Assembly (NCBI GenBank): GCA_002070965.1
Contig: MWEH01000138.1
Span: 20,499 to 84,498, forward strand
Origin: Firmicutes bacterium ADurb.Bin080
GTDB taxonomy: Bacteria > Bacillota > Clostridia > Christensenellales > DTU072
Length of the DNA stretch: 64,000 nucleotides
Direction of reading: 5' to 3'
Numbering within the stretch: the first letter of the stretch is position 1; every line of letters begins with the position of its first letter. Of the stretch, positions 12,310 to 53,176 are shown one piece after another. The notes under the pieces were generated by a model. That model worked only from the letters and a program-made list of their open reading frames with translations. It made no database searches and had not been told where the DNA came from. The position numbers were made by a program, and so were the translations under genes.

Positions 12310-14454
12310 ATGCCAAATAAGGTATCTATAGATACAAAAATATTATTAATTTTTATTGGGATCTTTTCTTTCCTAATAATTTTTTTGTCAAGTATTTTAA
12401 CCTCTTCTCAAGAAATGACGAATCAATTTGAAGCGCGCGGGTACATCAACCAAATCGATCAAAAAGAAATTTATTATGTTAGGCAGGGACCAAACCAAGA
12501 GTTTGGGCTAGGCTATGAGACTCCAGATAAACAAATTTTCCAATATTCTACTTTAACTTCTTTAATTGAGGATGTCCTTTCTCAGCACGCTAAGGCAACC
12601 ATTTTTTTTGAGGAATCTGTCTCGCAAGTTAGCGAGGCAATTATAATAGATAACTCTAACGACAGAATCAATGAAGAGGCTATACACCTTACGATGAAAG
12701 GAACACTGACTAGTATTCTTCCTGGGGGCGCTTTTTATGGAGAAGGAGACAATTCAAATACATACGCTCTTCAGTTTTTAAACTTGGAATCAACGTTTGA
12801 TAGTTTAACCTTTAATACATCTACTATTTCTGTAAAGATTGCTGATTCATCCATTTTGAATATTTACAATAGTATAATCTATGCGAAACCAGAGTATCGG
12901 AATGAATACGATGGAGGCACCATTATAAACAATGGTATTGTCAATATCAAAGAGTCAACAATAGAATGGATCGATATGAGTTCGAACAAACCTAAATTGC
13001 CAGATGGCATTACTCCAAATCCTTCAGCAAAAGGTTACGCTATTTTCAGCTATGGAAAAATAATTGTTGATCAAGGTATTACAGAAAATTACAGCTTGAT
13101 TCGTGGTAACGGGGGTATTTCTATTCAAGAGGGAGGGGAATTGTTGATGTATAATGGATCCCTTCAAAACACTAACTCAGCTTCGGAAGAAGGATATAAA
13201 ACTCTGTTAGTTTTCAATGGAAAAGCAGATATTTATGGGGGAGAGCTTACTGCAACAGAATCTTCACTAGTTGAGCAACCTGTAGTTATAAAACAATCCA
13301 CAGTTTCTTTTTCGGGGGATGTCGTAATCGATAGTGCAATATTTATAGGTTCACAAGATGTTAATTTGGGCAGTACAATTACGATTGGTGATTGTATTAT
13401 AGAAACAGTTCCTGGAGCCTACAACATTTCTATAGAACCTCCAGAAGGAAGCAACCAAATAAACTTAGCTGAAGATGTATCTCAAGTTGAATTAAAGATC
13501 GTTGATGTTGATCCCGAAAGAATAGTATCTGACGGATGGGGGGGAGAAAGTGGAGACACTATCCTTTTGGGTGAGGTCGAAAATTTAGTTTCTGAAGGAG
13601 AATCTATTTCTCCTAATGTCATTTTTATCTACTATGTTTCTTACTCCTATTTAAATATAGGAGGTTCTTTAGAAACAGATGTTGTTATGGTTAATGAAGG
13701 AGACTCGCACACAATATTAGGTAGAAAGAGTGTATACAATGATACTTCCCTAACATTATTGCATTGGTTTGATTCCAATACAAGCGACATATATTATTTG
13801 GAAAGTTTCACTTTGACTAATATTCAAAGGGACTATAACTTAGAGGAAAGATTGTTCTTAAATGATTTTTCCCTAGATGAGTTGAACGATTTGGGGGGTG
13901 ATATACCAGAGAATGGATATTATGTGGTTGCAAATCTTTCGGATTATCAAGATGAGTCTGTTTCATATAATTTTTCCTGGTACTACAAATCTAATGAGTT
14001 GGAAACATATTCTTGCTTAGAGGAAGAAAACAATGACAGACTATTTTTCAACGAAGATACTCCAAACGGATATTATAAAATAGAAGTTTTCGCCTCCCTT
14101 ACTGCCCCAGAAATGTCTGGGATAGGATATATCACTGAAAGTAAGCAATCTGAATTCATTGTTAATTATAACAAGGATCCAGTAGACCCTAACGACCCAG
14201 TTGATCCTAACGACCCAGTTGATCCTAACGACCCAGTTGATCCTAACGATCCGGTTGATCCTAATGATCCTAACGACCCAGTTGATCCAGTCCAACCAAT
14301 AGAATCCCGACCGACAACATTGGAAAGGAACAATTCGATAGCTACTGCTGCAATAGGTCTGACCACAGGTATACTCGCCCTAATTAGCACAGTATTTATT
14401 GCTTTTTCGAAATTTCTTGTACCTATTTTATTAAAAAAAATATCAAAAAGATAA
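12310..14454 (+). CDS. Surface/membrane protein: N-terminal hydrophobic anchor, probable beta-helix-like body, (DPVDPN)n linker, C-terminal hydrophobic segment plus basic tail
   Basis: A 714-aa ORF starting 22 nt after rdgB. The N-terminus is KILLIFIGIFSFLIIFLSSIL. The central region is rich in short G/N/I-patterned segments. The C-terminus is IATAAIGLTTGILALISTVFIAFSKFLVPILLKKISKR. No family was recognised. Confidence 0.8.
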   Translation: MPNKVSIDTKILLIFIGIFSFLIIFLSSILTSSQEMTNQFEARGYINQIDQKEIYYVRQGPNQEFGLGYETPDKQIFQYSTLTSLIEDVLSQHAKATIFFEESVSQVSEAIIIDNSNDRINEEAIHLTMKGTLTSILPGGAFYGEGDNSNTYALQFLNLESTFDSLTFNTSTISVKIADSSILNIYNSIIYAKPEYRNEYDGGTIINNGIVNIKESTIEWIDMSSNKPKLPDGITPNPSAKGYAIFSYGKIIVDQGITENYSLIRGNGGISIQEGGELLMYNGSLQNTNSASEEGYKTLLVFNGKADIYGGELTATESSLVEQPVVIKQSTVSFSGDVVIDSAIFIGSQDVNLGSTITIGDCIIETVPGAYNISIEPPEGSNQINLAEDVSQVELKIVDVDPERIVSDGWGGESGDTILLGEVENLVSEGESISPNVIFIYYVSYSYLNIGGSLETDVVMVNEGDSHTILGRKSVYNDTSLTLLHWFDSNTSDIYYLESFTLTNIQRDYNLEERLFLNDFSLDELNDLGGDIPENGYYVVANLSDYQDESVSYNFSWYYKSNELETYSCLEEENNDRLFFNEDTPNGYYKIEVFASLTAPEMSGIGYITESKQSEFIVNYNKDPVDPNDPVDPNDPVDPNDPVDPNDPVDPNDPNDPVDPVQPIESRPTTLERNNSIATAAIGLTTGILALISTVFIAFSKFLVPILLKKISKR
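14176..14292 (+). repeat. 18-nt in-frame tandem repeat (GACCCAGTTGATCCTAAC)n encoding (DPVDPN)n
   Basis: About 6 near-identical consecutive units are visible in the nucleotide sequence. Confidence 0.9.
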
Positions 14455-14574
14455 TATTATTTTCGTATATTTTCTAAAATAGCTGGTAATAAAAACGCAA
14501 AAATTTTACTTACAAAGAATGATTTTTTACTAAAATTTTATTTTAAAGTTCATATAGTTTTCACTGCCCATCCA

Positions 14575-14603
14575 TTGATGGACATATTATACGCGTGTAT
14601 AAT
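14575..14603 (+). promoter_or_regulatory. Candidate promoter for the giant ORF
   Basis: TTGATG (14575-14580), 17 nt, TATAAT (14598-14603), about 38 nt upstream of the TTG start. A weak AGGT SD lies at 14632-14635. Confidence 0.4.
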
Positions 14604-14640
14604 AAATACATAAAGAGAACCAGTTAAATGTAGGTAAATA

Positions 14641-17600
14641 TTGAACTGTAGAAAATCTATTTTCAAAAAGACTTATACGATTTTGCTAATAGCACCAATC
14701 CTGATGGTGTTGTTTGTTTTTCTTTTTACTGCTAGCTTGCAAAATGTATCTGATTACGAATCTTCTCTGAATATAGTTGCTGAAGCTGCTTTGTATAATT
14801 CATCCGTCTTTAACTCAACGCCTCTCTCCGTTTCAGACTTAGGCGCCACTCAGACTATTCTAGTTGATAGTGCGGCTTCCGATAAGGTTAACATCAACAA
14901 CGCTGCAAAAAATAAGATGGGTGTCCAAAACGAATGGGGAACAACGAGTTGGTCCAGGTTTGAGATTGATTCTAATGGACGTTGGATTCTTGAAGGCGAT
15001 GGGCAAGATGGAAAAAGAGTCTTGGTCTGGGCTAGATTTCAGATAGATGATGATATGATAAATATTAGAAGGTCTGGAAGCCTATATGCTACTTTGTATA
15101 GTGAATACGCTTCTATTGGAACGGGAGACTATTTGCATACTGGTATTGGAAAGGCAGGCTTGACCGATTCAGCTATTTCAACTTCAAGTACTCGAGATAA
15201 TACCTCTGCTTTTTTATCCTCTCAACAAAAACCTGGATGGTCAGCATGGTGGAGTACTGACAATGCTATGCCGGTTGCAGCTGGAACTGTTACAAGCGAT
15301 GGTTCTGCAAATGATGCATATATTTACTTTTTCTTTTATGCTGTTGGAGGCGGAAATGTAGCTTTTGGAATAGAGAATATGCGTTTTGTCCTTTCTTATC
15401 AAACAGGTAATGCGGTTAAAGTAAATGAGAACCATAGCAAAGTCGGAGGAATAACGCCCTCAAACATTGGATCTCTTGGAGACGCAGAATATCTTAAGAA
15501 CGCAACCTCTGGCACTTATACAGATTTAGGTAATTCTGCTACTAATTTCAGTTTTGATAATTATAGTGATTATTATTACATGCGTTCTGACGAGATCGTG
15601 ACAGGATATCGTTTTGCTGGGTGGCTTGAAACGACCTCTAGTTCCCCACCTGTGGCTGATATGGACAGGGCTGATTTTACTTACAACACTACCTTAGCTT
15701 CAGCTAGGACAGAAATACAAAGCAAAATAACTGGTTTTGTTGCATGGCATAATGGGACTTCCGCAAGTGGATATAACTATTTAAAAATCGGGAGAGTGGC
15801 TGGATCTGGAAATACAAGAATTATTGGAGGACGTAATATTACTGCCGTGTATGTTCCTTTGCAATATGAAATTCGATTTACAAAAACTGGTACTACAGAA
15901 GAATACGACCAATGGGTCCCAAGCAGCATTCTTACAAATTTAAGGGTAAACACGATAACCAATGGGGATTCAATATTCTTGGGGTGGAAATCTAACCCTG
16001 GAGCGAACGCTTACGTCGATGAGGCGGCTATAGTTAATTTGATTTCTTGTCCTGAAGCAAATATTAATGCTACAGATTATTTTAGGTGTGACGTTTATAT
16101 AATTATGGAGGCACAGTGGGGAAACTATAGCGTTGGATCTGCGAGCAGTATAACTGTAGCTAGCTATGCCCAAGTTAGTAGAGGGGATTATGTGGACTAT
16201 TACTACAATGTCACCCTTAAAGACACTACTAATAATACTCTTCAGGGAGTTTACGCTACTTACTCAAGCGGTCCGTTATCCGGAAAGAGTGTTGTTCTTG
16301 ACAAAGACCCAAATCCTTCCTACCCGAATGGTTACATCCTTCCTTACGTAGCAGGCCAGGCAACTATACACGGCGATATTTTGCGAAAAATATACACTAT
16401 AACTTATAGTTATTCGGGATGGACATGTTCCCCTACTGTCGAACAGCAAACGTTAATTGCTGGGGTTGGTAAGAGCTTTTTGGATCTTCCGGTTCCCACT
16501 AAAACGGATTATATTTTTGAAGGCTGGACATATAGTGGAACCTTAGTGAGATACAATTCATTAACTGGTGTTACGGGAAATATTACTTTGAGTGTGCAAG
16601 GATACGAAAAGAAGACTACATCGTATAATACGTATACCTCTTCTTCTGGCTCAACTGAAACGCCTACATCTTTAGATAATAATTATTGGAATAGGTCTTT
16701 AGTTGGAAAAGAGGGAGCCATCCAAGATTCAGGTATGAAAGTTTCAATAGATGGAAGTGATTGGATTGGTTTTCGAGATAAGGGTCTTGTCACTGACGGT
16801 GACACCTCTAAATACTATAGGCACGCATCAATGTATATACCTCTGGAAGGAGATGCTTTAAAAGCCTATATGCTTGGAGCGACTATAAAGGTTTCTGCAT
16901 CAGCAGATGGAATCGCTGCGGCAAAGGGCAGATTGGGATATTGGGCAGAAGCAGAAACAAGGATAGCCGTTAATAGCGGATATGTACTTTCGAGTAGTAG
17001 TTCATTTCCTGACAATTCATCCTCCTCAATTATTAAGAGACAAAAAGGGGGTAGCTGGGGAAAATCTACTGGTTCAAAAACAACTCCTAATGTAACTCTA
17101 TCTAGCCCAGGTTTTACAATACAAGTTGCCTCAAGACACAGTGATGAGGCCTCAAGCAATACTAGTTATGAAGCGCAAAGTGGCTGGAAGAATTTCACCT
17201 ATACGGTGGCCATTACCAATCTGCCTGCCACATATTCTGTTCAACTTAATGGGAATAATGGAACTAGAGCTTTCCCCGGAAATTCTTCCGCGACATCTTA
17301 TACGATCAATGTGGCGAATACTGCTAATTTTAAAGCAAACATACCATACAATCTTTTTTCTAGAACAAATTATTTTGGCGATGATACCGGGTGGGCCACT
17401 TCTTCAGGTGGTTCTCCAAGTGGAACATATTGTCCTGGGGCCTCAATTCAGATGAGTTCAAGCCAAACCATTTATACTGTTTGGTATGAGAAGGGGTATA
17501 CTGTTGCCTCGTGGGATGTCTTGACCGGTAATAATTCAGGTGTTGCGTACAGAGTTCGACCTCCGGAATATAGAAAAGCTGGCACGGATTTTACAACAAG

Positions 17601-35600: not shown

Positions 35601-38600
35601 TACTTTATCTTATGACACAACAGGTGCACTTGAGGAAGGGAAAATACTGAAAATTACTGCAAAAAATGCAGGATCTTATAGGTCAAAGATAATTGCTTTA
35701 GACGGCGCGGACAGTTCTAATTATAAGCTTCCTGTTTCGGGGACGTATCAGGATTGGGCAATAGATCCCCTAGTGGTTACTATCTCTTGGACCGAGACTT
35801 TATCATATGTATATAACAGCTACCCAGTAAGCATAGAAGCGACAGTCACCAATAAGGGAGATGATACTGTAGCCTTGACTTTAAGAAATGATGGAGTATT
35901 TGATGGAAGCAGAATGCAATATTACACTGCAGTTAATGTTGGTTTATACAAAGCTGTGATTACAGCTGTAAGCAATCTGAACTACACTCTTACTGGAGTT
36001 TCTGCGAACGACCTATATAGGGATTGGGAGATTACTAAAGCGGATATCACAAATCTATCCCTCACAAATAAATCCGTAACGTACGATGGTAACAGTCAAA
36101 GCATTTCTGTTCCTTATTCAGTAACTCAATACGGAGATCCAATCACAGTAGATTACGAAATTACACCGTGTGGAGGGGCTGCGAGTCCGGGTAATAGTGC
36201 AACTAATGTACATATTTACTTAGGAAATCCGTCTTATTACATTGTTACTGCAACGGTTGATGCAGGGGCTAATTATAATCCTATTACTTCTGCTGATCCG
36301 CTATCTGCAAATCTTACAATTAATCAAAAGGTTTTGGTTTTTGAATGGGGTATATTGGGACTTTTAAATCTCGATTATGAAGTTGAGTACGATGGTGGGT
36401 CACACGGTATTTCTTTGGAGATTAGTGGGATAGTAGGTGCGGATGTAGTAATATTTACCTATTCCATTGAGGACACTCCCGATTATGATGAATTGACCAG
36501 CGGTGTTACCCAAATATCTAATTCAACAGAATATGATATGACCGCAATCAATGTTGGCTATTATGGCAGAAAGGTCACTCTTGTTAGTAATACCAATTAT
36601 AGTTTACCAGCAAACAATGCTGAGTATTTTGAGATTACTCCAATTGTTGTAGATGTAGATTGGACAGGCGTCACAGTTTCTTACACTTACGATGGAAGCG
36701 CTAAGACTGTTCAAGCGACAGTTACGGGTATATTAGTCGCTGATTTAGCTGATGTAAACCCCGTTTATGACGATAGTGGTATTCCAGTAGATGGAGTGGG
36801 TGGAGTAGGTAGAATAAAACACAGCATTGCCACCAATGCAGATGAGTATATTTCTATTCTTACAGGACTTTCAGGAGTAAAGGCAGATAATTATACTTTG
36901 CCAGGGAATGGACTAACAAAAGAATGGGTTATCAACCAACTTGCAGTCACCGTAAGTTGGACAGGCAATGCAACTTATGTTTACAACAAGACTACAAGGC
37001 AAGTCACGGCGACAGTAATAAATAAGGTTGGCGGAGATAATATAACTCTAACTTATATTTCCTCGGGGACAGTAATAGACAATGAATTAAATGAAAGAAC
37101 TTACTCAAATTCTGCTGTAAATGTAAATTTATACCGTGCGGAAATATCCGATTTAGGGAATGATAACTACACACTTACCGGGGGAGTAGATGTTTATTTC
37201 GATTGGGCTATAACAAAAGCTAGTATTACAAATGTATCGCTCAAGAATGTTACTGTAACATATGATGCTTTAACACATCCCATTACACTAAGTATAAGTG
37301 GAAATCCTGACAGAAGTGTCTCTGAAAACTCATACGTGACTGAGACTCAGTTTGGGGATGCGATTACAATATCTTACACGATTACTCCTTACGGAGGTTC
37401 TTCCGTATCAGGGAACAGCGAGACAAATGTTCATATGTATTCAGGATCCCCGTCCTATTATGTTGTTAACGCTTCTGTTCCTGCCAGTACCAACTATGAT
37501 GCCTTCTCTGTAGGTGCAAACCTAACTATTTCTCAAAGAGTAATTCAAACAGTTACTGTCGATGGAGATAAAAATGTAACCTACAAGGGGACTGAGTATA
37601 GCATAGATGCCTCTAAGAGCGATTATACAGATTTAGGAGCAGGAGTTGGTCATACAATTACCTTAACGCAAAAAATTAATGGGGTTGACGGGAATAGCGC
37701 TATAAACGCAGGCATATACACTGTTGTTACTACTGCAAATGTAATGAATGGAATTGATATTAATACTAACTACCAAACACTTTCTGTCAGTTCAGTTCTT
37801 ACGATAAACAAAGCAGTCGCTGTTAATGCATCCGATGGAAGCTCAATTGTATACAATTCTGCGACTGTAACATACAATGGATATTTGAGGTTCTTAAATG
37901 TAAATAATTCTGCTGCTGGAGATGAAACTTCAGTATCTTCCTCAGCTTTAAGCTCACTTAATATTAAGCCTCAAGGAGTGGATCTTAGTCCTGAATTTGA
38001 TGGCGACGAAGTCCCCTTATCTTATATGTATGGTCTGGTACTTGGATCATATGTCAACGTGTATAATGGAGTAAAGGATGCAGATATCTATTACTTAGAG
38101 TTAACAGTTGAAGATCAAAATTACATAACTCAAACATTGACTGCAGTATTAACTATAGAGCAAAAAGATTTATCCGACTTAGATGTGAATCTTTATCTAG
38201 TTGGGTATACTGCGACTTACAATGCGCAATTCAGGAGCCTTGGTGTGAATACAATTAATGAAACCAAGTATTCGGCTGACACTTCGGTTGCACTTCTTGC
38301 TTTTGACACAGGAACAGTCGCGTATGTTTACACCCAAGACCCTCTTGGTTTTGCTTATGAAGGGACTTGGAATACATTCACTAACAGCATTATTAAAAAT
38401 GCAGGGACATATTACGTTAAAGCATCAGTTGCTGGAGGGGCTAACTATATAAGCACTGAAAAAGCAGCAACTGTGATTATTAATCCTGCAACAATTACGG
38501 GAATAACACTTGGTGGCGGGGGTATATTCACATACGATGGAATTAATAAGGTTTTGACTGTGTCAGGCACAACAACTCAATATTCAGAATCAGTTGGGGT

Positions 38601-41600
38601 ATCGTATGAAACTATTCCTTCCGACTATGCAACAAGCGGGATATACAATGGTGCGAGGAATGCAGGTTACTATGTAGTTTATGCTTATGTAAATAAGTTA
38701 GGTGATGCGGGATATAATTCTAACTACAACACACTTAATTTAAATTCATCACTAGAGATAACAAAAGCTACAATGTGGAATGCATCTGATGTGGGAGGAG
38801 CTTTCTATTACAATAACGCATCTATGACCTATGATAGCTATACGCATTTTGTAAATGTTATGTTGACTAACGTGAGTGGTTTATCCCTCAATCAAGTGTC
38901 TTCCCTAGCGATCGCTCCATCCACAAATCTTTTATACAACTCTGATACGGCGAATGTTATTTATAAATATAACACTTTGAATAACGGTACCTACCCCAAC
39001 AACTTCTCTGGAACTAAGAATGCCGGAACTTACTATCTGCAAGCGACTTTAAATAACTCAAATTACAATGATGTGATTTTGACTGCAACATTTACTATTG
39101 ATAAATATCAGACATCGGCGAATTGGACGGGTACAGGCTCAACTTACACTTATAATGGGTTCGATCAAAAAACTTCCATTTCAGCCTCATATACATTGCT
39201 CCCAAACGATGGGACGACTGAGAGTCTTTCTTTAGAATACGGATATTCCACTGATAGTCTCGGACCATTTACGGGTGTAATAGACTTCATGAATGCTGGA
39301 TACTATGAAGTTGCCGCAGTTGGGTGGAATCCTAATTACGACTTATCTAATACAGTGAAGAGCTTGACAATGCTCAAAGCTTCTATTGTGAGGTATCTTG
39401 TTGATAATTCAGTCTCTTATAACAAAACCACAAGGTATATAAGCGCTGGAATAAGTGATTCTGTTCCAGATGTGTCCGCATATGATTCAAATAATACTTC
39501 CGGCATTAGTCTCCTTGGAAGCGATACTTCAACCATATATTATTATAGTCAGGATCCAGCAGGCGCATACGTTATTATTGATGGAGAAGGCGTCGTATAT
39601 GACCCTCTGTCTCATGATGGGATGACAAGATATTCTAACTTTACTGGAGCCTTTAATGCGGGAATTTATTCTCTTAGAGCGGTTATTAGTGCGGGATACA
39701 ATTATAATGTTTGGGACGACACTGCAACCTTAACAATAAGCCCTGTAGAAATTTTGAATATTTCTCTTTCAGGATATACTGGTACTTATGATGGCGGTGA
39801 ACATTCTACAACACTAGTTAACACAAATGGTGCTGGGATAACACAGTATGGAGATGAGATTTCAGTCCAATATACTATGCTTCCTTTGGACGCCGTACTT
39901 TCGTATGGTGGATTGGACCTTGAAAACAGGGCTCTTAGTGCAGGTGAATACGCGGTTAACGCGGAAATAACTGTTTCCGGAGGCAACTACATAGACCTTG
40001 AATTAGATGCTCAGATTTCTATTGCAAAGGCTACCATGTACAATCTAGAGGATACCAGTACGGACTTTTACTTTAATAGTGAAGATGATCCGCTTAATCC
40101 TAGATGCTATGATGGTTTAACTCATTATATCAATGTAATGATGACAGATGTTAGTGGATACAGTACAGTAAAAGTAAGTTCTATTTCGGTATCCCCCGCT
40201 AACAACACTTCACATGTGGGAGATAGTGCTTCAGTAGAATACTATTACTCTTTAGTTTCGGGTGGTCCTTATTTATCAGTATTTAATGGACAGAAAAATG
40301 CGGGAACGTATTATTTAGAAGCCATCATTTCAAACTCCAACTATGTTGAACAATCGTTCGAAGGGACCCTAATTTTACTTCCCTTTGAGGCTACAGTGAC
40401 TTGGGATGGAGAAGATGGGGAGTATACGTATTCTGGTTTTGAGCAAACAAATAGTATTAGCGCTTCCTATGAACTGGTTGTTGCCGATGGTGGGACAGAT
40501 ATGCCACTGAATGTAGATTTTTCTTATTCGATAGATGGCGTAATTCCTTATGCATCAGTAGAAAACTTTAAGAATGCGGGGTATTACAAAGTTTCTGTAA
40601 GTAGCCCAGATCCAAATTATAGCTTTGCCATGTCGATCACTTCGCATGATTTAGAAATGAATAAAGCTTTGATTTTGAGATATATGCTCGATAATGCTGT
40701 TAGCTTTGATAACACTTACCATTTTATTAGCGCTGGAACTAGTGCTTCAGTAGTGGATACTTCCACATATGAAAATGGTACGGAAGTCTTGAATCTGCTC
40801 GCAAGTGACACTGCTTCAGTTGTCTATACCTTTACAACTGACCCATTAGGTTTTGGATATCTTGGAACATGGGATCCTTTCAATGGCGCATATAATGTTG
40901 GAACATATTATCTAAAAGGGACTATTGATGCCGGATATAACTATGAATTATGGACCGAAACAGCAATATTGTCGGTTAATATTGCAAATATCAGCAACAT
41001 TACCCTTTCTGGATTGACCGTTACTTATGATGGACAAGTTCACGTGCTCATTATTTCGGGTGACGAGACACAGCACGGTCTCGCTGTTCCAGTAAGATAC
41101 GCGATGTCCCCTGAAGATCTCGAAAATGGCGGGGTCCTTAATGGGGCAAAGAGTGCTGGAAGTTATACTATATATGCTTACGTAAACGAAGAGGGATTGA
41201 CTGGGTATAATTCGAATTATAACGAGTTGCTACTAAATGCAACTTTATTGATTGAAAAAGCTCAAATGTATAACAATACAGACAGCAGTACTAACTTCTA
41301 CTTCACGGATGAAAGTCTTACTTATGACAGCTATGTATACTACATTAATGTTGTTTTAACCGCTACCGCAGAAAGCCTTTCCACAAGTAATACAACTACT
41401 CTTCCTGTTTCCCCTGCAAATGCAACGGCATTCTCTGGCGATCAGGCTACAGTAAACTACATGTATTCCCTCGTATCAGGTGGACCATATAATTCAGTTT
41501 TTTCGGGGACTAAAAATTCTGGAACATATTACCTTGAGGCGACCATGTCAAATTCGAACTATATTAGCAATGTTTACACCGCAACTCTATCTATTAGCCC

Positions 41601-44600
41601 GCTAAGCAGATCTTTGGTGTGGAGTGGAGACCTAGCCACGTACACATACAATGGGTTTGACCAAATTGCTAATATAGGTGTCTATTATGAGTTGGTTAAC
41701 AATGATATAGTTCTTGGTGACGATGAAAATGAACTAGATCTTTCTTCCTCATTGAAGTACAGTACTGTAACGGGCGGTCCTTATTCGGGCGTGTCGACAT
41801 TCTTAACCGCAGGTTATTACTTGTTTGAAGCAGCTATGGATGACCCAAATTATTCTTTTGCTACTGAAACTAAGGAGATTCGGATATTCAAGGCAGATAT
41901 TGAGCTGTATTTCCTTAGCAATAATGTTACATATAATACACAAACCCATTATATTAGCGCTGGAACTAGCAATTCAGTGGTAAATACATCACCTCCTGAA
42001 CAGATATCCTTATTTGCAAATGATGTTGCAACAGTCACTTATACTTACACTACCGACCCATTAGGCTTTGATTACAGTGGATTATGGGCTTCTTTTGTTG
42101 GGGCAGTAAATGCAGGGATATATTATTTGAAAGCGGAAATTTTAAGCGGAGATATTACTAACGGATATACAAACTATAATGTATGGGATAACAAGCAAGC
42201 AACTTTAACTATCAATACAGCAACAATTACGGGTATTTCTCTTTCCGGGGGAGGAACTTATACTTACGATGGACTTGTACATGAAGTATCGCTAACTGGA
42301 TCCTCCACCCAATATAGTGAATCTGTACCTTATCTATATAGTATGGTCCCGACAGACACTGCTATAGTGTATGGAGGGGCAGTTTATGAAAATAGGGCAA
42401 AGAGTGCAGGTTTCTATGTTATCTCTGCGGTGGTAAATGGATCTTCTCAGGATGGCTATAATCCAAATTATAAGACCCTAAACTTGTCTTCCAATCTCAC
42501 AATAGAAAAAGCTGTTATGTATAACTTTACCGATAGTTCTACTCAATTCTATTTCTTGAATGAGAACATAACATATGATGGAATAACATATTTCATAAAC
42601 GTAAAATACACCAACATATCCGGCCTTGCAACTAGCAATATTACAACCCTAGATATAAGACCCGCAAATTCTACAACTTTCGCTGGAGATACCGCCCTAG
42701 TTGAATATTGGTATACGACTACATTTGGTGGAGCTTATAATACGACATTTAATGGGGTTAAGAATGCAAATACCTATTATTTGAAATCAATTTTAAAGAA
42801 TGATAATTATATTGAACAGGAATATACAGCCACTTTTGTTATTGATCAATTTGATGCCACCGTTGTATGGGAGGGGTTCTTGGATACTTATACGTACAAT
42901 GGTTTAGACCAAATCGGGAGTATCGGGGCCTATTACACCTTGGTTCCCGCTGATGTAAGTGGAGGGGAAAGCCATCACTTTGTAAATTTATCTCTTGAGT
43001 GGTCCTCTTCTGGGAATGTAGGCACTTACGCTAGTATCGCCGCCTTTATGAGAGCTGGTTATTATATTGCATCAGTTCAAAGTGACAATCCAAATTATAA
43101 TTTTGTGCATGGTACTCCTACCCAAGATTTGGATAAAGAAATAGTTATTAATAAGGCAAACGTAAATAGGTTTATGGTAAATAATACTTTGACATATGAT
43201 GGATTTACCCACTATATCAGTGTTGGACCAAGCAGTATTAATCCAAGAGATGAATATGCGACTTCTGGGACCTTATTAGGCGCAGACCAAGCTACATTTA
43301 CTTATAAATACAAAACAGACCCCAACCCGTTGGTTGATTATATTGACGATTTTTCAGGCAAGAGAGATGCTGGAACCTTCTATCTAAAAGCCTTTTTATC
43401 AATCACTGCAAATGACCATGGTGGTTCTGATAACTACATTTCTTGGCCAGATGTTAATAATAGTGAATCGGATATAGCAACATTAACAATTGCGAGAAGA
43501 CAACTTACAATCAGTCCTACAATTGATTGGAGTAAGATTTATGACAGCACCACTAACTCTCCCAGCTTCAGTGCTTCTAATTTTGTTGTAAATGAATTGA
43601 GTGAAGATGAATCCACAACTCATACTGTAACAGGAAGCTACGATAACAAAAATGTGGGAACAAATAAAACAATTATTTTTGATATAAGAGTTATATCCAC
43701 CAATGAAGTAAGCAATAATTATTATGCATCTTCCGTTAATATCGGTGTAATCACAGTTCATACACTAATAGCTACTGATCCTGTTGAAGGATGGACGATG
43801 GTCTATTCTGGATCTAATTATTTCGGAGCTGTTACAAGTTTCGAAGAAACTCCTATTTTCCATGGGATATATGATGGAGATAATCTTACCGTTTCAGCTT
43901 TCTTTAATACAAAGAATGTAAGTTCTGCTGATACAATTAACTTCAGCCTTTCTGGAACAGACCAAAATAACTACTATATGTCCTCTATTAATTCGGGTGT
44001 ATCCATTACTAAACTTGATGTAGATGCTTTCTGGGCAGATACTGAATTGGTATATGATGGAACGGTTCGTTCTTCAACCTCATATTTCAATTTGGTGGGC
44101 AATGACAGAACTATTGAAAACGATGGAAAAGCAAGCTTAATTGTTATTTTCTACTCTGATGTGAATCATACTCCAGGCAATGAAATTTCTGAGTATCGTA
44201 ATGCAGGAACTTATTATGCCTTGGCCACAATTAATCCACTCGATCAAGACTTGGGTGCGGAACCATACGTAAATAACTATAATATTACAATTTCGGAAGC
44301 TGCAGTAACATGCACAATTGCTCCTATAGCTATAGATATAGATTGGTACGGGATAGAAGGAATCGAGTATGTATATAACGGAGAAGATTTGTTGATTTCC
44401 GATATTTACGGAACTATCACAGTAGTAGGAACAGATGTTAATATTGTTGGGAGTGCAACTGCTGAATTATCCCTAGAGGTACTCAAGGGAGGAATTCAAG
44501 TTTATGCTATTAGGAATGCTGGAATATACACCCTTGTCGCCTATTTGGATTATCAATATCCAGGTGGGGTTGAAATGGGTATTAATTATGATTTAGGAGA

Positions 44601-47600
44601 TAACAACAAAGAAGTCACTATTGAAAAAGCTGAAGTAACAAATGTTGTCTTTGGTGATGGGACTGAAACTCTAGAAGATAGTTTTACGTATACGGACGGA
44701 ATTCCCTATAGATATTTTGCAATCCCTTCAGGTGGAAGTGATTACTTCTCCTCGGTTTTTGCAACTTTATATTATGAGTATGATCCAGCAATTGAGTTGG
44801 TGGTGACTTATGGTGGTGGAGACACAACATCAGTTGGTGTGACTGGGAACAATGCAATAAAGAATGTGGGAACTGGAAGTTATTCAATTTCAGGGAATGT
44901 AATTGAGACAGAAAACTATTTGTCTTGGAGTGGAACCATCCAAGTTGAAGTATACAAGGGAGATATAGAGGATGATTTCTTCTTTGAAGATAACATCATT
45001 ACTTATGTTGGGCAATATGTAGCTATTTTTGTTACTAACGCCGAGGGTACTCCAAACATGGAAGAGGGAGATGTCTTTTATGAAGACAGCACTAGCCCAA
45101 TTATCATATATACTTACTTGGTTTTAGATGCTATGGGAGGATATGTTGTTGTTGATGATGTAGTACTTGTATATGATCCTATTGAACATTCTGGATTGGA
45201 TAGATATTCTTATTCAGCCTTTACGAATACAATTGCAAGAAATGCTCAAAAGTATTATATTAATGCTCTGATTTCTGAATCTTCAAACTACTTTGGATGG
45301 GAAGGAAATGCCATACTTGAAATTGAACCACTTCTGAGTAATGTAAAATGGGAATTCGATAACCAACCTATTAATAATGCTGTTATTCAATTTAATGGAT
45401 ATGATCAATTTGAGAAAGTATCGGCGTATATAGACGCAGTTGGAACAGATGGAACAAACAACAGAATTTCACTAGATATTACTAGTTTCTCTTCTCAGGA
45501 CTTGTGGTCATATATCTATGGACAGGGTATCAGCGATTATGAATATAACGGGGGTCTCGCTGATGAGTTTAGAATTGCCGGAGATTATGATGCATCTAGT
45601 TATTTCGACTCAAATGACATAGGCGCTCCAAGATACTACAGCCAAAATTATCGTTTAATGAACGGAACAGATAACGTAACTTTAACTATGCAAAAATATG
45701 AGGTCGGTATTAATTGGTATGAGATGGGTACTACTGATTTGTATGATCCATTAACTCCCTATGTATATGATGGTGAGGAACATGGAGTTGATCCTATAGG
45801 GTATGGACTTTTTGAAATACCCTCAGGAAATACCTATTATTCCGATTCAGGGTTATCAATTTCAGTCGGAACTTTGACCACTGAGCATATAGTTGTTTAT
45901 ATTAATTCTACATATTCAGTATTTATTGGAAACGGAACGGATGGAGTTGATGGAAATACATATTATGTAAGTTCTTCGGATTGTTCGGAAATTTTGATTC
46001 CTATTGTTCTTCAATCTGACCGGCAAACAAACGCAGGTGAATATACCGCACAAGTTAATAGAATTTTGGGTGGATCGGTCGCTGAGATTGTAAATCCTCT
46101 TGCTTGGTCAGAAGGATCTGTCGGTTCCGGATATCTATTTGACTATAATTATATCCTCCCAAGTGAATCGCTTGGTGGGACCTCTAGAATAATGAATTGG
46201 GAAATATTAAAACGTCAGCTGTTCTTGTCAATGGATGATACTGCTTCTCTATATAAATATTACGATGGATCTTCTTTGTTTAGTCTTGGAGAGACCACAG
46301 TTGTCCCGACTATCGAAACAATTGAAGGAATAGATGTTCGAGATGAATTGCGAACAACTATTGCAGGCGATGGTTACTTTGATTGGTTAATTGAAAATAT
46401 TGTAGATGGGGATGAACTGAATATTAATCTTACCTTACAGGCAATCAGAGCTTACTACAGAGAGATAGGTTTTGATGATGTGGAAAAGTCAAACATAAAA
46501 GCAAACGTAATTAATATTCTGTTTGAAACATTTAGCAATGCTAATTATTATCTCTTCGATATTGAGTCTTCTCAAGAGAGCGGAGTAACCTTTGAAGTGG
46601 ATAGAAGTTTAACTTCTACCCCTCTAGATCCAGAAGTAATATTGAAGAGGCCAGTATCCATGGTTAAGAGTGAGACTGCAGGACATATGTACAATGGCCT
46701 AGGGGTTGATATTACATACGATTCTTCTTCTAATACTAGGATTGTCACAGATACGATATTGTTTGCCACAATGATAGATGGGATAACAGCCTTCGAATTA
46801 AATGAGTTGTACGAGGGAAATTACTTTGTAGGAAGGGGTTATATATCGGGCTATGACTACACTGGTTTACAGGCCGTTAGTGGAGTTAATGCGAAAGATG
46901 CTGGTACATACGATATAGTAATACAGGCTGGATTAACATCTGTGGATTCAGAGAGTATGGAAAATTATGACATTTCAATTTCAAATGAACCGCTGGATGG
47001 ATTGTATACAATTACTCCAAGAGAAATAAAGATTTATTATAACTATGACTTACAATGTTTTGAAGAAATCGCTGCTAGTAATATAAGATCTGTAAGCGTA
47101 AACTCTTTGGGAATACCTTTTGATACAGTGGATTTAAGCGAAATCGAATTTAACAATCTTTTGACTTCGGATAATGTATTGACATCATCATTTAGTCTAA
47201 CTAATAGTTGGACAACTGATATCCTTACAAAATCTTTCTACAACAGATACGTTGGAAGTTCTGATAATCCGGAAGAACTTCTATATATTACGATTCCCGA
47301 TCAAAGAGACAGAAATAATTATTCATATAATGTACCAGTTTTGCAAATAACTTCAATTGGACTCACAAATCCAAGTGCTGGATTAAGCGATTATAAATTT
47401 ACAGTAAATGATGCAAATGATGTCTCTGAATTAGGAAGAGACATTGAAGGTTTGATGTATTCAAAGATTACTTACGGAGTTGGATTAGAGGCTGAATTTG
47501 AATATACGCAAACAAATGATATTTATGCAATAAGTGGCAACACAAACTCTTCCACCCAAACACCTAGTGGTTTTGATGGAGTATATTATGGCCAAGGATA

Positions 47601-48693: not shown

Positions 48694-48705
48694 AATAGGA
48701 GAATT

Positions 48706-49434
48706 ATGATCAAGGGTAAGCTAATAATGATGATAGCAACTGTAGTCCTGCTTCTAGCGGGGCTAGTTAGCGCGTCTCTGAGTTGGTATACTTCACAAGA
48801 GCAAGTTTCTGGTGAAAATGCTTCAGTGGGAGCGGAGGAAAGTATAACCGCGTCAATTAACAGTACTTTAATTGAAGTTAGTCATTATGGTGGGGAGACT
48901 GGGAAGGCTCCAAGCACGCATGAAGATGCTCCTTATTCCATTGATATTTCACTTTCTTTATTTGCTTCTGCTTTAGAAGGCACAACTCACTTAAAGATTA
49001 CTTTAACAAGTCTAATCGTGGGTACCGGGACAATCGAAGAAACGGATAAATACATATTCGAAACTAATACCCCTGAAGATGATATGACCATTAGAGTTCT
49101 TGCAGGCGAAGATATATACAAAATGAATAATGATGGGTATTTGGTCTTAGAAAGCAATACATCAGTTTTTTATGAAGTACAAAATGGAGAAAATATTTTT
49201 ACCGTAACATTGTATTATTTGGATGAAATTAGATATTTACAATGGATACAAGATGAAGAGGATAGTTTAGAAGAATATAATATAGAGAGCCCGGCTATAA
49301 GCTATCATGAATGGCTTGAAACCCAACCTGAGTATTTTGCATATGATGCTTGTTCTTATAGTAACCCTATATACATGTTCACTAATTTCTTCTTAAGCAT
49401 GAACTATATTACCGAAGGCGCATCCGGAGAATAG
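48706..49434 (+). CDS. Secreted/anchored protein (242 aa) with a TasA/camelysin-like (SipW-class-like) N-terminal signal; function unknown
   Basis: AGGAG SD, with the ATG 12 nt after the giant ORF stop. N-terminus KGKLIMMIATVVLLLAGLVSASLSWYTSQE, compared with the camelysin-type ...GGGTFAYFSDKE. The size is close to the TasA family. The body was not recognisably homologous by eye. Confidence 0.75.
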   Translation: MIKGKLIMMIATVVLLLAGLVSASLSWYTSQEQVSGENASVGAEESITASINSTLIEVSHYGGETGKAPSTHEDAPYSIDISLSLFASALEGTTHLKITLTSLIVGTGTIEETDKYIFETNTPEDDMTIRVLAGEDIYKMNNDGYLVLESNTSVFYEVQNGENIFTVTLYYLDEIRYLQWIQDEEDSLEEYNIESPAISYHEWLETQPEYFAYDACSYSNPIYMFTNFFLSMNYITEGASGE

Positions 49435-49435
49435 A

Positions 49436-51880
49436 ATGAAAACTTTATTTACAAAGTCTAACTTAATACAATTGGTTGCAATAGTGATGTCAATCATTTT
49501 TGCTGCTGGGGTAGTGACTTATTCTTGGTATTTACAAGACACTGACACTGAAGACGTATTACAACTCCAAGCTGATGGTGCTCAAGTAATTATGTTTGAG
49601 GCAGAAGTGTCTGAGGCAGCTCTTGAAGGTACATTGTATCCCGCAAAAGCAAAGAAATCTGCTTATATTGATGGGAGCATTCCAGACAATCCGCAAGTAA
49701 TACCTATAGGCGGGCTTCTCCCAGATTATATTGATGAGCCAGCTGGAATTGTTTCATTTGACACCAACCTAACATATTATGCTTTAGGGCTTAGTGGAAA
49801 GATCAGGATGGAGATTTTGTCTTCTACAAAGATTAAAGATGACCCTCTTTCTAGGGATTTACAAACAACAGGAGAGGTAAATGCAAGTTATATTTTCTCT
49901 CTGCAAGATTTCTATCTTTCAGTTGCAGAAGATGGTATATGGAATATCTTAAGCGCATCTTTCCCGTCTGATGGGACTATATATACTAGGGATAACAAAA
50001 AGTATTATGAGTATACTAGTGCGTATACTCCTTTGACAGGGGATGGAATAGTTTATAATAGTAAAAATCTAACTTCGGAGTACAATGTTGTTTCTGAAAA
50101 CGACTTTTTGACCAACAATGGAGTATTGGATCCTGACCTCAGGGTATACAACTATCAGGTTGCCTTTTTAAGAAATGGAAAGAAATACATTGAATCTTAT
50201 TCGAGTTATCAACCCCTTGAAAATGATACGATTATTTATATCAACAAGGTGGATGCCTCTTGCTCGGATAATAAAATCGAAAACGTATTATTGAATGAAG
50301 AATTAGTTTTTTATTCTCGAGCTGGGAAAAACTATATTGAAAAACTTTCAGTATATAACTCTGGCCAAGGGGAGACTGATTCAAATGCTATGAAGACAGG
50401 TGATGTGATATATTACATAAGCATTGAGACACAGACAAGTCCAATTGAACCAGTTTATATTGGAAGTATGGCTAATCCTTCTTATGTGGAATATTATCTT
50501 TCCGGGGCTATTTCAACTAGATATGTGGTTAGCTCTGATTACTGGGATTCTGAGCTTGATGGGGTTAGTGGTTATAACAAAGTAGCTTGGACTGGCCAAA
50601 CAACGGATGGATATAACGGTAACGGAATATCTTTTGATAATAATTTTGTGGTATATCAAAGAGAGTATTCTTCGACAACATATACCTGTATTGATCATAT
50701 CGATTCCTACGCCCCATTAACTGGAGATATAATTTTAAATTATCAAAAAATTGATTCCACTAAAGTAACATTTTCAGACCCGAATTACACTGCAAATCTA
50801 GTTGATATTAGAAATAGTACGGAAATAGATGTGACAGACAGGGATTTGTTATATGTAGATGAAAATGAAAATATTGTTTGGAGTCTTTACTCTGATGCTG
50901 ATTTCTCTTTGTTTTCTGATGATACCCTATTATTTGCTAATATTGTTGATACAACAACAGGAAGAATCGTTGTAAAAAATTATACATATGAAAGTGGCGG
51001 GGATGAGCCTTTAACCTACACTACTGCAGATATTTTGGTGATGAACTCAGTGTCTTTTAATGATTCTTATACCCTGGTAAAAAGATTTGATGAAGTAGAA
51101 TATGTGTATAGCGAAGTAGAAACACTTGATATAAGTACTCCTTTTTATCATATTGAAAAAGATGCGCTATACGAACCGCAAACCTTAGATCTGATTTATT
51201 ATAATATCTATGTTGCAGACGACGTTATGTATGATTCTGGAAGTGGGGAATACACGGTAAATGACTTAGATTTGTTTGATGACGATTTTATCTATAGCAG
51301 AGATGGAGTAAGGTATATTGTTAAGGAAGGGGACTATATTCCGGTTGAGGACGATATTATCATCTATGAAAATGGAAGCGCAGTAGGACAAGAATTATTA
51401 ACTTATGATAATAGTGGATATAGTGCAAACAAGATAGCGCTTGAGAGCGATGATACGGTATATCTTAGGAATGGAAAGATATACGTATGCACAACCCTTT
51501 ATTACTCCTCACAAATTGGAGATATCTCTTTATACGAAGATGGTATAGTAACATTAGAAGGAGAGGATTATATAATCGAAGCAGAGGAAGGAGACATAGT
51601 TGATTATTATGTAGATAATGTTTCCTTATTGGTTAATGATGAGGTGTATGTTAGAGACAACGATTTTCGCTTCATTTATAAAGATGCAGAATCATATTCT
51701 CCTATTGAAGGAGATAATATGATTTTTGATAGTGGATATATGGTTGCTGATGCTCAAACTAGGTTTATGATTAGCGGCTCGGTATATATAACCACTTTAG
51801 ATCAAGAGACTTCAAGAGATTTAATCGGGGCAACAATCACTTTGATGTTATCAATGGAAAGCCCGGATATTTCAGAATAG
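49436..51880 (+). CDS. Acidic, Tyr-rich secreted/anchored repeat protein (814 aa), function unknown
   Basis: It starts 1 nt after the previous stop. N-terminus LIQLVAIVMSIIFAAGVVTYSWYLQDTDTE. It contains 7 copies of a motif I could not assign (see the repeat feature). Confidence 0.8.
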   Translation: MKTLFTKSNLIQLVAIVMSIIFAAGVVTYSWYLQDTDTEDVLQLQADGAQVIMFEAEVSEAALEGTLYPAKAKKSAYIDGSIPDNPQVIPIGGLLPDYIDEPAGIVSFDTNLTYYALGLSGKIRMEILSSTKIKDDPLSRDLQTTGEVNASYIFSLQDFYLSVAEDGIWNILSASFPSDGTIYTRDNKKYYEYTSAYTPLTGDGIVYNSKNLTSEYNVVSENDFLTNNGVLDPDLRVYNYQVAFLRNGKKYIESYSSYQPLENDTIIYINKVDASCSDNKIENVLLNEELVFYSRAGKNYIEKLSVYNSGQGETDSNAMKTGDVIYYISIETQTSPIEPVYIGSMANPSYVEYYLSGAISTRYVVSSDYWDSELDGVSGYNKVAWTGQTTDGYNGNGISFDNNFVVYQREYSSTTYTCIDHIDSYAPLTGDIILNYQKIDSTKVTFSDPNYTANLVDIRNSTEIDVTDRDLLYVDENENIVWSLYSDADFSLFSDDTLLFANIVDTTTGRIVVKNYTYESGGDEPLTYTTADILVMNSVSFNDSYTLVKRFDEVEYVYSEVETLDISTPFYHIEKDALYEPQTLDLIYYNIYVADDVMYDSGSGEYTVNDLDLFDDDFIYSRDGVRYIVKEGDYIPVEDDIIIYENGSAVGQELLTYDNSGYSANKIALESDDTVYLRNGKIYVCTTLYYSSQIGDISLYEDGIVTLEGEDYIIEAEEGDIVDYYVDNVSLLVNDEVYVRDNDFRFIYKDAESYSPIEGDNMIFDSGYMVADAQTRFMISGSVYITTLDQETSRDLIGATITLMLSMESPDISE
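49969..51740 (+). repeat. Seven copies of a roughly 30-aa motif, hydrophobic-(Y/F)-x-R-x-G-K-x-Y-(I/V)...Y-x-P-(L/I/V)-x-G-D-x-I-(I/V)-Y
   Basis: IYTRDNKKYYEYTSAYTPLTGDGIVY (49969-); FLRNGKKYIESYSSYQPLENDTIIY (about 50160-); FYSRAGKNYIEKLSVY...KTGDVIYY (about 50303-); VYQREYSSTTYTCIDHIDSYAPLTGDIILNY (about 50645-); IYSRDGVRYIVKEGDYIPVEDDIIIY (about 51287-); VYLRNGKIYVCTTLYYSSQIGDISLY (about 51455-); VYVRDNDFRFIYKDAESYSPIEGDNMIF (about 51643-). Confidence 0.75.
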
Positions 51881-51893
51881 GGAAAACAAGAAA

Positions 51894-52541
51894 ATGAAAA
51901 AAATTACAAAAATATCAATTATATTATTATGTTTGATGGTTGTATCCTCTTTGTTGGTGGTTAACACTTATGCAAAATGGAAACCAGAGAGAGAAGCTGC
52001 CCAGACAGTAGATATACCGGGTACCGGGTGGAACCCGGCAGAAAGCTATATAGTTTTCGCAGGCCTTGATTCTTCAAATTTAGTAGTTTCTTCCTCAGTG
52101 GACTTTTCGGAAATCATAAACTTTGCAGTTGTGGGATATACAGGTACAGTTGCGGAATTGGTGATCCCAAGCGAAATTACTGTTTCATATAATGAAGTGG
52201 AAATTACGGGGTCAGTAGTTCAGATATTAGCTGGTGGAAGTTCAGGCTTTTACTTCCAAGATGGGGAAGAATATACTGGGGATTATGGGGAAGTGGATTT
52301 AAAGAACAATCAGATTATTACATCATTGTATTTACCAGCTACAATTACATATATTGGAGCCTCGGTTTTTATGGGTTGTGTGAACTTAGAAGAAATAGAA
52401 TTAGAAGGCTCTGAAATAGCGATTAATATGGGAGATTATGCTTTTTCAGATTGCATATCTTTATCTTCGGTGGTCCAAAATACCAGAACAATAGTTGGAG
52501 TTTTGGCCTATGTTTTTTACAATACCCCTTATTTAGAATAA
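51894..52541 (+). CDS. BspA-type leucine-rich-repeat surface protein (215 aa)
   Basis: N-terminus KKITKISIILLCLMVVSSLLVVNTYAKWK. LRR_5-like units: ELVIPSEITV..., ITSLYLPATITYIGASVFMGCVNLEEIEL, INMGDYAFSDCISLSSV. Confidence 0.75.
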   Translation: MKKITKISIILLCLMVVSSLLVVNTYAKWKPEREAAQTVDIPGTGWNPAESYIVFAGLDSSNLVVSSSVDFSEIINFAVVGYTGTVAELVIPSEITVSYNEVEITGSVVQILAGGSSGFYFQDGEEYTGDYGEVDLKNNQIITSLYLPATITYIGASVFMGCVNLEEIELEGSEIAINMGDYAFSDCISLSSVVQNTRTIVGVLAYVFYNTPYLE

Positions 52542-52597: not shown

Positions 52598-52626
52598 GAA
52601 AAGCCCCTGATAAAAAGGGCTTCTTG
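52598..52626. terminator. Hairpin terminator shared by the cassette end (+) and the tRNA-Lys(CTT) unit (-)
   Basis: Stem AAGCCC (52601-52606) / GGGCTT (52617-52622). On the minus strand a T-rich tail (TTCTATTT) follows; the tail is weaker on the plus strand. Confidence 0.55.
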
Positions 52627-52700
52627 GTACACCATCGGGGACTCGAACCCCGGACCCATTGATTAAGAGTCAATTGCTCTACCAGCTGAGCTAATGGTGC
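52625..52700 (-). tRNA. tRNA-Lys (anticodon CTT), CCA encoded
   Basis: The reverse complement folds as a cloverleaf: GCACCAT acceptor, anticodon stem ATTGA/TCAAT with loop CTCTTAA, GGTTCGAGTCC T-arm. Confidence 0.9.
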
Positions 52701-52737
52701 AAAATAAGGCAAGCAGCATTGAAATGCTGCTCGCATG

Positions 52738-52812
52738 TGGAGCGGGAAACGGGATTCGGACCCGCGACTTTCACCTTGGCAAGGTGACACTCTACCACTG
52801 AGTCATTCCCGC
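52738..52812 (-). tRNA. tRNA-Gly (anticodon GCC), CCA encoded
   Basis: The reverse complement is GCGGGAATGACTCAGTGGTAGAGT..., anticodon stem TCACC/GGTGA with loop TTGCCAA. Confidence 0.9.
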
Positions 52813-52825
52813 GAATAACGTGTTT

Positions 52826-52854
52826 ATTATACTATATCTTTTTTTTATTGTAAA
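52826..52854 (-). promoter_or_regulatory. Candidate promoter for the tRNA-Gly(GCC)-tRNA-Lys(CTT) unit
   Basis: The minus strand reads TTTACA (52854-52849), 17 nt, TATAAT (52831-52826), about 14 nt upstream of the tRNA 5' end. Confidence 0.5.
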
Positions 52855-52941
52855 TTAAAAAACAAAGATAATGGAAACGAATTAACCGCTCATTGATTGA
52901 CTAAAATGATATAGTATAAACATAAAATGCGTTATTATAAT

Positions 52942-52969
52942 AAAAAACGCAGACATAACTCTGCGTTTT
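52942..52969 (-). terminator. Rho-independent terminator immediately after tRNA-Leu
   Basis: Stem AACGCAG (52946-52952) / CTGCGTT (52961-52967) with an 8-nt loop. On the minus strand it is followed by a T-run (the complement of the A-run at 52942-52947). Confidence 0.7.
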
Positions 52970-53053
52970 TGGTGCGACCGAAGAGACTTGAACTCCCACC
53001 TGGTTAGAGACTAGATCCTAAGTCTAGCGCGTCTGCCATTCCGCCACGGTCGC
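52970..53053 (-). tRNA. tRNA-Leu (anticodon TAG), long variable arm, CCA encoded
   Basis: The reverse complement is GCGACCGTGGCGGAATGGCAGACGC..., anticodon stem CTAGA/TCTAG with loop CTTAGGA. 84 nt. Confidence 0.9.
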
Positions 53054-53172: not shown

Positions 53173-53176
53173 ATAT

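Follow-up and report, generated by a model that had tools for sequence, protein, structure and literature searches.

The question raised by positions 12310-52541 of the stretch analysed here (the window: 64,000 nucleotides (nt) of contig MWEH01000138.1, positions 20,499 to 84,498 of the forward strand, from the Firmicutes bacterium ADurb.Bin080 assembly GCA_002070965.1) is how a surface protein of 11,350 amino acids (aa) that carries no sortase signal could be exported and mounted, and which of the four smaller proteins encoded beside it belong to the same system. An earlier note, made from the sequence alone, had described a five-gene surface cassette made up of a 714-aa beta-helix-like protein (P714), a giant MBG fibre and three small partners (A, 242 aa; B, 814 aa; C, 215 aa) with TasA/camelysin-like signal junctions. 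The core that recurs elsewhere comprises four genes, encoding the giant protein and partners A, B and C, and is found in at least nine divergent lineages with GC contents of 30 to 54% and differing flanks. The chances are about even that this core is a sortase-independent giant surface-adhesin module of uncultured Clostridia (Christensenellaceae-like metagenome-assembled genomes (MAGs) from anaerobic digesters), equipped with an equimolar accessory complex cleaved by a SipW-type signal peptidase.

All five genes lie on the plus strand in the order P714 (12310-14454), giant (14641-48693, TTG start), A (48706-49434), B (49436-51880) and C (51894-52541), separated by gaps of 186, 12, 1 and 13 nt. 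The lengths and gaps in the open reading frame (ORF) list are exactly those given by the earlier note, and each of the five products opens, as it had reported, with a short basic stretch that leads into a hydrophobic segment ~20 residues long. Its statement that sortase signals are absent also stands: none of the five C-termini inspected contains an LPXTG motif, and no sortase signal, S-layer homology (SLH) domain or other wall-anchor domain was found in any product of the cassette.

Close relatives, in which B is 85 to 41% identical, keep the order giant-A-B-C together with the flanking genes, and because those flanking genes are conserved too, synteny among them is not independent evidence. 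Word-indexed homolog searches returned close relatives only, and the more distant family was reached only by an exhaustive profile search with B, in which nine proteins were listed at E <= 0.001: two from close relatives (P0005, and P0007 in locus L003), the 747-aa protein P0015, and six proteins of 219-280 aa (P0016-P0021) matching the N-terminal domain of B. An alignment of these six showed that most of them retain the C-terminal segment 'TT.DE.T..DL' of B and a single repeat copy. Eight of the nine proteins are encoded in a locus with a giant gene and A, B and C, and the ninth (P0019, locus L018) lies on a 2-kb fragment that keeps only the overlapping A-B pair. In the P0015 locus a giant of >6,693 aa is followed by proteins of 260, 747 and 233 aa, the last with an LRR_5 domain; in the P0016 locus a giant of >3,917 aa is followed by 255, 280 and 215 aa, in the P0017 locus a 9,004-aa giant by 239, 268 and 218 aa, and in the P0018 locus an 8,070-aa giant by 246, 261 and 221 aa.

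The order giant-A-B-C is kept in the clade of the window, in L003 and L004 (the 41%-identity clades), in the P0015 clade (L009, L022, L023) and in L012, L014 and L015, where BLAST identified the third small gene (215-221 aa) as C (E 1e-26 to 1e-30). In two rearranged lineages (L017 and L030, which carry P0021 and P0020) A and B lie on one strand and converge on a giant gene, a gene for a protein of ~1,245 aa and C on the other strand. The flanks of the distant loci are unrelated and include EAL, tocopherol cyclase/Rieske, ABC/Wzy and MFS genes. Orthologs of A are 24-32% identical (E 1e-11 to 1e-39; L009, L012, L014, L015, L018), with a match confined to the N-terminal ~80 residues in L017 (E 3e-6); the C orthologs of the distant cassettes are 33-36% identical (E 1e-23 to 1e-30), and the N-terminal domain of B matches its distant orthologs with E 1e-7 to 1e-14. 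In L012, L015 and L018 the stop codon of one gene overlaps the start codon of the next, by 4 or 8 nt, and translational coupling is implied by this. Because the set recurs among unrelated flanks, is clearly orthologous and consists of coupled genes, the giant protein, A, B and C constitute a conserved functional unit. The check suggested by the earlier note, whether the trio is conserved next to giant proteins, thus has a positive outcome, with different flanks, a rearranged order and coupled starts, and the absence of synteny in relatives that would have refuted the note is not what is seen.

The giant protein, a surface protein, begins with a basic and hydrophobic leader followed by a ~1,480-aa N-terminal region outside the repeat array, inside which lies a Listeria-Bacteroides repeat (Flg_new); MBG/YDG-like repeats, a second repeat class and a conserved C-terminal head follow. 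The Pfam scan gave YDG (PF18657) in two stretches (46.2 bits against a cutoff of 25) in addition to Flg_new, and did not detect MBG_2 (PF18676). A self-built hidden Markov model (HMM) detected 47 or more ~85-aa repeats that follow the MBG/YDG-type pattern 'Y.Y(D/N)G...NAG.Y' (consensus from the self-trained model '..LSW...YTYNG..QGV...VSGIVSGD.V......NAGNYTV'). The MBG label of the earlier note therefore holds as regards the repeat pattern and the YDG matches, through which the giant counts as a tandem MBG/YDG-domain protein, and fails as regards MBG_2 itself. Giants range from >2,700 to ~11,500 aa across lineages where called, and from ~8,000 to 11,500 aa where the gene is complete.

The cross-lineage comparison of the giant covered the C-terminal head (last 600 aa; 46891-48690, plus strand), which is conserved in all lineages compared, with colinear BLAST matches in the giants of seven other lineages (25-42% identity, E 1e-19 to 1e-156). 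It may carry GLUG-type motifs: GLUG (PF07581) scores 14.5 bits against a cutoff of 20.5 in the C-terminus of the window giant and 21.1 bits in the L014 ortholog, and is the only Pfam family matched in the giant heads (last 500 aa), in four heads out of five. Automated gene callers begin the giant at an ATG 21 codons downstream (11,329 aa), the span from TTG to ATG being 14641-14703; from that ATG the basic n-region is missing and the hydrophobic leader segment is cut to about half its length. The TTG start gives a normal basic and hydrophobic leader, and the public annotation has probably called the wrong start. Five copies of a ~60-aa insert with the pattern 'G.(F/Y)YSD..L...GTL....I.Y....Y..F(I/V)G(D/N)GTDG..G.TYY' are present in the giant at aa ~5870-5935, 6230-6290, 6300-6360, 10390-10455 and 11150-11210 (nt approx. 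32250-48270). The insert was found only in the clade of the window and its 85% relative (the L006 clade), and not in the available C-terminal ~1,900-3,300 aa of more distant giants.

Partners A and B matched no family in Pfam, NCBIfam or the sequences of the PDB, profile searches against the PDB sequences included. None of the three small partners belongs to a housekeeping family, membership of which the earlier note had named as grounds for refutation. The mature part of A appears to represent a new beta-rich family and B a second new one. The AlphaFold2 (AF2) model of A is a beta-sandwich of low confidence (predicted local distance difference test (pLDDT) 56, predicted template modelling score (pTM) 0.56), and a Foldseek search with this low-confidence model gave no significant PDB fold match; the AF2 model of B (pLDDT 40) is unusable. 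B consists of a conserved N-terminal domain (residues ~33-180), ~7-8 copies of the repeat 'Y.R.GK.Y....Y.P..GD.I.Y' and a conserved C-terminal strand 'TTLDQET..DLIGATI', and in most lineages it occurs as a form of 219-280 aa with a single repeat. Across the family B measures between 219 and 832 aa, as this internal beta-hairpin-like repeat of ~50 aa expands from one to ~8 copies, the N-terminal domain and the C-terminal strand remaining fixed. A pairing of the B repeats with the 'GDGTDG' inserts of the giant was considered and rejected, because the inserts occur only in the clades of the window and L006, yet long forms of B are also found in L003, L004 and L009.

Partner C scores 39.7 bits with PF13306 (LRR_5) against a cutoff of 27.7, and the label of BspA-type leucine-rich repeat (LRR) protein that it had been given is thereby supported. 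A conserved segment 'EA.QTV.VP...WN.S.KY..F.GLD' precedes the LRR_5 domain. Precomputed LRR_5 matches are available for the C orthologs of 10 fetched loci and are weak in L004, L005, L015, L016, L017, L030 and L031; for the C orthologs of L012 and L014 no precomputed LRR_5 match is on record. Mutual homology of the mature parts of A, B and C was rejected, hhalign aligning their leaders only.

These leaders are what the three families share. The hhalign probabilities for the leader alone are 92% for A-B, 88% for B-C and 55% for A-C, and the junctions read (arrow, predicted cut) SLS↓WY in A, TYS↓WY in B and TYA↓KW in C. The signature comprises a basic N-terminus, ~23 residues up to P1, the residue before the cut, and then [ST]-[YFL]-[AS]↓[W/x]-[FYW]. 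A table of 35 proteins, drawn from 12 loci, has only S, T, A or G at P3, only A, S, G or T at P1 and only F, Y or W at P2'; Y, F, L or I occupies P2 in 34 of the proteins, and W stands at P1' in 24. The distance from the last basic residue to P1 is 20-24 residues (median 23). No positions are conserved in the hydrophobic cores in an alignment of 28 leaders. Judged from sequence, the junction of A, B and C is that of the -3/-1 rule of type I signal peptidases with an added aromatic P2', of the TasA/SipW type. TasA is cleaved at GGGTWA↓AFND (checked against PDB 8AUR, in which the chain starts at A28), and the abstract of PMC10269814 describes an aromatic P2' as poorly cleaved by LepB and TasA as processed by the archaeal-like peptidase SipW. 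TIGR04088 is the top match for A, at 15.8 bits against a 19-bit cutoff. The TasA/camelysin-like description of the earlier note is accordingly retained for the junction, found in 35 of 35 proteins; it is not retained for the mature parts, which have no detectable TasA/camelysin homology, and the TIGR04088 match lies below threshold.

A candidate peptidase is encoded near the cassette in L014, where a 253-aa archaeal-type signal peptidase (TIGR02228, 75.3 bits against a cutoff of 51.85; SipW model, 79 bits) lies 4.6 kb downstream of C on the same strand. C is followed first by an EAL gene, then by an ORF of 299 aa, by the gene for a 491-aa protein whose leader reads TLA↓WF, and by that for the peptidase. 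The EAL gene encodes a cyclic di-GMP (c-di-GMP) phosphodiesterase, and the interval L014:14410-16872 (Logan SRR29082275) holds the 491-aa protein and the peptidase; the stretch from C through the EAL and 491-aa genes to the peptidase may be an extended matrix or adhesion locus.

On this basis A, B and C would be exported by Sec, and their leaders would be cut after [ST]-[YFL]-[AS] by an archaeal/ER (SipW)-type type I signal peptidase, leaving an aromatic P2' as in TasA. Given the translational coupling of the genes, the three proteins would be made in a ratio of ~1:1:1:1 with the giant, and after export they would form a small accessory complex with its C-terminal head, which is the most plausible docking site because it is the conserved part of the giant. 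C may act as an adaptor or tip binder through its LRR interaction surface, docking of A and B may use the conserved segments at the N-termini of the mature proteins, and a P714-type protein may provide a membrane-side anchor, with a wall-spanning proline-rich stalk and a transmembrane (TM) anchor. In its most specific form, which is put forward tentatively and is rather doubtful, the module would be a new sortase-free way for Gram-positive Clostridia to mount a megadalton fibre, in which SipW-released A, B and C (two new families and a short LRR protein) assemble on the giant head, possibly donating N-terminal strands, as a tip or anchor complex, with the TM-anchored stalk protein as base.

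Several observations weigh against this mechanism. TIGR04088 matches only 4 of the 28 leaders, always below threshold (best E 0.0044) and no more commonly than generic FliL-type anchor models do. Outside L014, neither the 64-kb window nor the other flanks fetched yielded a SipW-type peptidase gene. Pfam reveals no TasA/camelysin similarity in the mature A, B and C proteins, hhalign against TasA aligns nothing past the leader, and Foldseek with the low-confidence model of A gives no significant match; the AF2 models of both A and B are poor, as given above. All cassette genomes are MAGs, and it is from sequence that we infer cleavage, complex formation and docking to the head.

The same leaders could instead remain uncleaved, so that A, B, C, the giant and P714 are all signal-anchored and their helices, with an interfacial belt of aromatic residues (W/F/Y), form a membrane platform for the base of the fibre. 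The 20-24 residues between the last basic residue and P1 are of transmembrane length, helices typically carry aromatic residues at the end that meets a membrane interface, the FliL models match as often as TIGR04088, and C-terminal TM anchors are evident in P714 and in the ~1,245-aa proteins. Small residues at -3 and -1 in all 35 proteins, after a polar, small c-region, are nevertheless expected of a peptidase site and are not needed for an anchor; the hydrophobic cores lack conserved positions, the same junction is present on the protein adjoining the SipW-type peptidase gene in L014, and the leader of TasA itself runs 21 residues after its basic stretch, so that anchoring of this kind is considered unlikely.

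If the leaders are cleaved, one or more of A, B and C might form a sortase-independent fibre or sheath by polymerising as TasA or BsaA does, with the giant as cargo or matrix partner, much as the earlier note had proposed in suggesting a polymerising sheath. The leader class resembles that of the fibre subunits TasA and TapA, a conserved segment follows the junction, and the C-terminal strand of B could serve strand exchange. Such a sheath fits poorly with stop and start codons that overlap with a gene for 8,000-11,000 aa, which argues for equimolar, low-copy synthesis with the giant; A, B and C have no TasA/camelysin homology, and growth of B from 219 to 832 aa by insertion of repeats is unusual for a packing subunit. 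Polymerisation is therefore regarded as distinctly improbable.

It is less probable still that no dedicated system exists and that independent surface proteins are adjacent by vertical inheritance or co-regulation. Close relatives do share synteny over the whole region (birA, lplA and E1 dehydrogenase downstream, GH3 and rdgB upstream), but the module survives among unrelated flanks, across GC contents of 30-54% and through the A-B inversion, with coupled starts, and every B-family protein from the profile search sits either in a giant and A/B/C locus or, in the ninth case, with an overlapping A on a fragment. A further reading, in which the three partners are pilin-like, carry class III signal peptides and present the giant from a tip complex of the minor-pilin type, in the manner of minor pilins and PilY1, is hardly credible: A matches Pfam Pilin_N weakly (E 0.0016, 19.7 bits against a cutoff of 25.2), some leaders weakly match a prepilin-dependent pilin model, and bioRxiv 10.1101/2023.11.21.568195 reports that giant genes of Omnitrophota have small neighbours with class III-like signals, but all matches are sub-threshold, PilB, PilC and PilD genes were found in none of the fetched flanks, and the 28-leader alignment and the 35-protein table show neither the G or A that a prepilin site would conserve ahead of the hydrophobic stretch nor a Glu5, on which ground prepilin-type processing was rejected.

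P714 stands apart from the four-gene core. It is a membrane-anchored surface protein composed of an N-terminal signal or TM segment, an ectodomain, a proline-rich PVDPND stalk, a C-terminal TM helix and a KKISKR tail. The ectodomain had no match in the libraries, in which the earlier designation as beta-helix-like finds no support, and a metagenome scan with P714 found nothing. The stalk is a perfect repeat of the hexapeptide PVDPND at 14180-14300, just ahead of the TM anchor. An 860-aa homolog (40% identity, same C-terminal anchor) lies upstream of the giant gene in L024, where the N-terminus of the giant is 66% identical and the GH3-rdgB flank is the same; this homolog is devoid of the PVDPND stalk and has a duplicated ectodomain module of ~200 aa instead. 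In L017 and L030, the ~1,245-aa protein whose gene separates the giant gene from C begins with a TM segment and ends in a TM anchor, and its relation to P714 is marginal by BLAST (E 0.002) and is given by hhalign with 78.8% probability (E 1.7e-5, ~490 columns). P714 is thus weakly tied to the module, by relatives with the same flank and by this weak hhalign match in two distant lineages, and it is a possible fifth component; the five-gene set originally proposed is reduced to a conserved core of four.

The closest described systems are TapA-SipW-TasA of Bacillus subtilis, CapP/TasA/CalY of B. cereus and SipW-BsaA of Clostridium perfringens (PMC10269814, PMC9674648, PMC13082335). Common to these and to the cassette are a sortase-independent Gram-positive surface and several co-encoded proteins that share a special leader; the junctions are alike (GTWA↓AF in TasA against those of A, B and C) in their small -3/-1 residues and aromatic P2', and in one lineage, L014, the cassette has a gene for a SipW-type peptidase nearby. 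The cassette differs from them in that its mature proteins lack TasA/camelysin (Peptidase_M73) similarity, in that there is no sipW in the operon or the window, and in that its main product is a single giant polypeptide and not a polymer of small subunits, with partners that appear equimolar. Clostridia proteins of 10,000-30,000 aa with MBG/YDG, Listeria-Bacteroides-type and GLUG repeats are described in bioRxiv 10.1101/2023.11.21.568195, and the giant resembles them in its YDG and Flg_new matches, the possible GLUG-type motifs of its head and its at least 47 Ig-like repeats. It differs in having a conserved partner trio, of which a term search of that text found no mention; here the C-terminal head and the three partners form a conserved unit. 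C resembles BspA-type LRR surface proteins in its above-threshold PF13306 match and differs from them in being short (~190-230 aa), in its specific N-terminal segment and shared leader, and in being always linked to A, B and the giant. Very large surface proteins encoded in tandem with a few small proteins for secretion, mounting or function are also known from sprCDBF of Flavobacterium and gli123-gli349-gli521 of Mycoplasma mobile. The likeness of the cassette to these is one of analogy only, there being no sequence relation and the export routes being others (the type IX secretion system and a wall-less membrane machinery, respectively).

The module therefore joins known kinds of element, giant Gram-positive adhesins and SipW-class sorting, and there is a fair chance that it is a distinct assembly system. 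No description of the A and B families or of the module was found in Pfam, NCBIfam, the PDB sequences or the literature searched, in keeping with the claim that the system is undescribed; it looks like a real surface system, whose function would be that outlined above. Giant surface proteins are common in gut and digester Clostridia, and their export, retention and function without sortase signals are largely unexplained. A defined and conserved set of partners, a sharp leader signature and two new families are gained for finding such systems in genomes, and the 600-aa head of the giant and its three partners give multimer modelling and heterologous tests something concrete to aim at. If the proposed SipW-type release of A, B and C is correct, SipW/TasA-type sorting extends beyond the subunits of biofilm fibres.

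Transcription of the five genes as a single operon is not established, because a good match, by consensus only, to a sigma-70-like promoter (TTGATG-17-TATAAT, 14575-14603, plus strand) lies inside the 186-nt gap before the giant and the start of P714 is only 22 nt past rdgB. No Rfam element or riboswitch was found in the gap upstream of the giant. A pattern scan of 48-54 kb found no terminator-like site on the plus strand, consistent with the earlier observation that none is visible before 52.6 kb. The first terminator-like structure after the cassette, and the sole hairpin after C, is a GC-rich hairpin at 52599-52624, between C and a convergent tRNA-Lys gene; it was scored on the minus strand and belongs to that tRNA-Lys, and it may also be used as a plus-strand terminator. 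Eight minus-strand tRNA genes (Lys-CTT, Gly-GCC, Leu-TAG, Lys-TTT, Gln, His, Arg-TCT and Gly-TCC; 52625-53523) converge on the cassette.

The upstream neighbours are housekeeping genes (gyrB/gyrA-type topoisomerase genes, der, an aminotransferase, IMPDH, GH3 and rdgB) and the downstream neighbours are birA, lplA and E1 dehydrogenase. A phage origin was rejected, there being no relatives in viral contigs and the neighbouring genes being housekeeping genes, and nothing in the surroundings suggests a mobile element. Near the rearranged cassette of L017, the interval L017:1-6664 (GCA_965346345.1) encodes a 2,102-aa MBG_2 protein, a 1,079-aa Big_2 protein, a 568-aa membrane protein, an ABC ATPase and a Wzy_C protein, and may be a second surface-protein or export cluster. 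Within the window, a gene of the F420-0:gamma-glutamyl ligase family (PF01996) is present at 7517-8713, in what is a Clostridia MAG, and the E1 dehydrogenase beside lplA and birA is a fused protein of 773 aa, with alpha and beta parts in one ORF (55652-57973).

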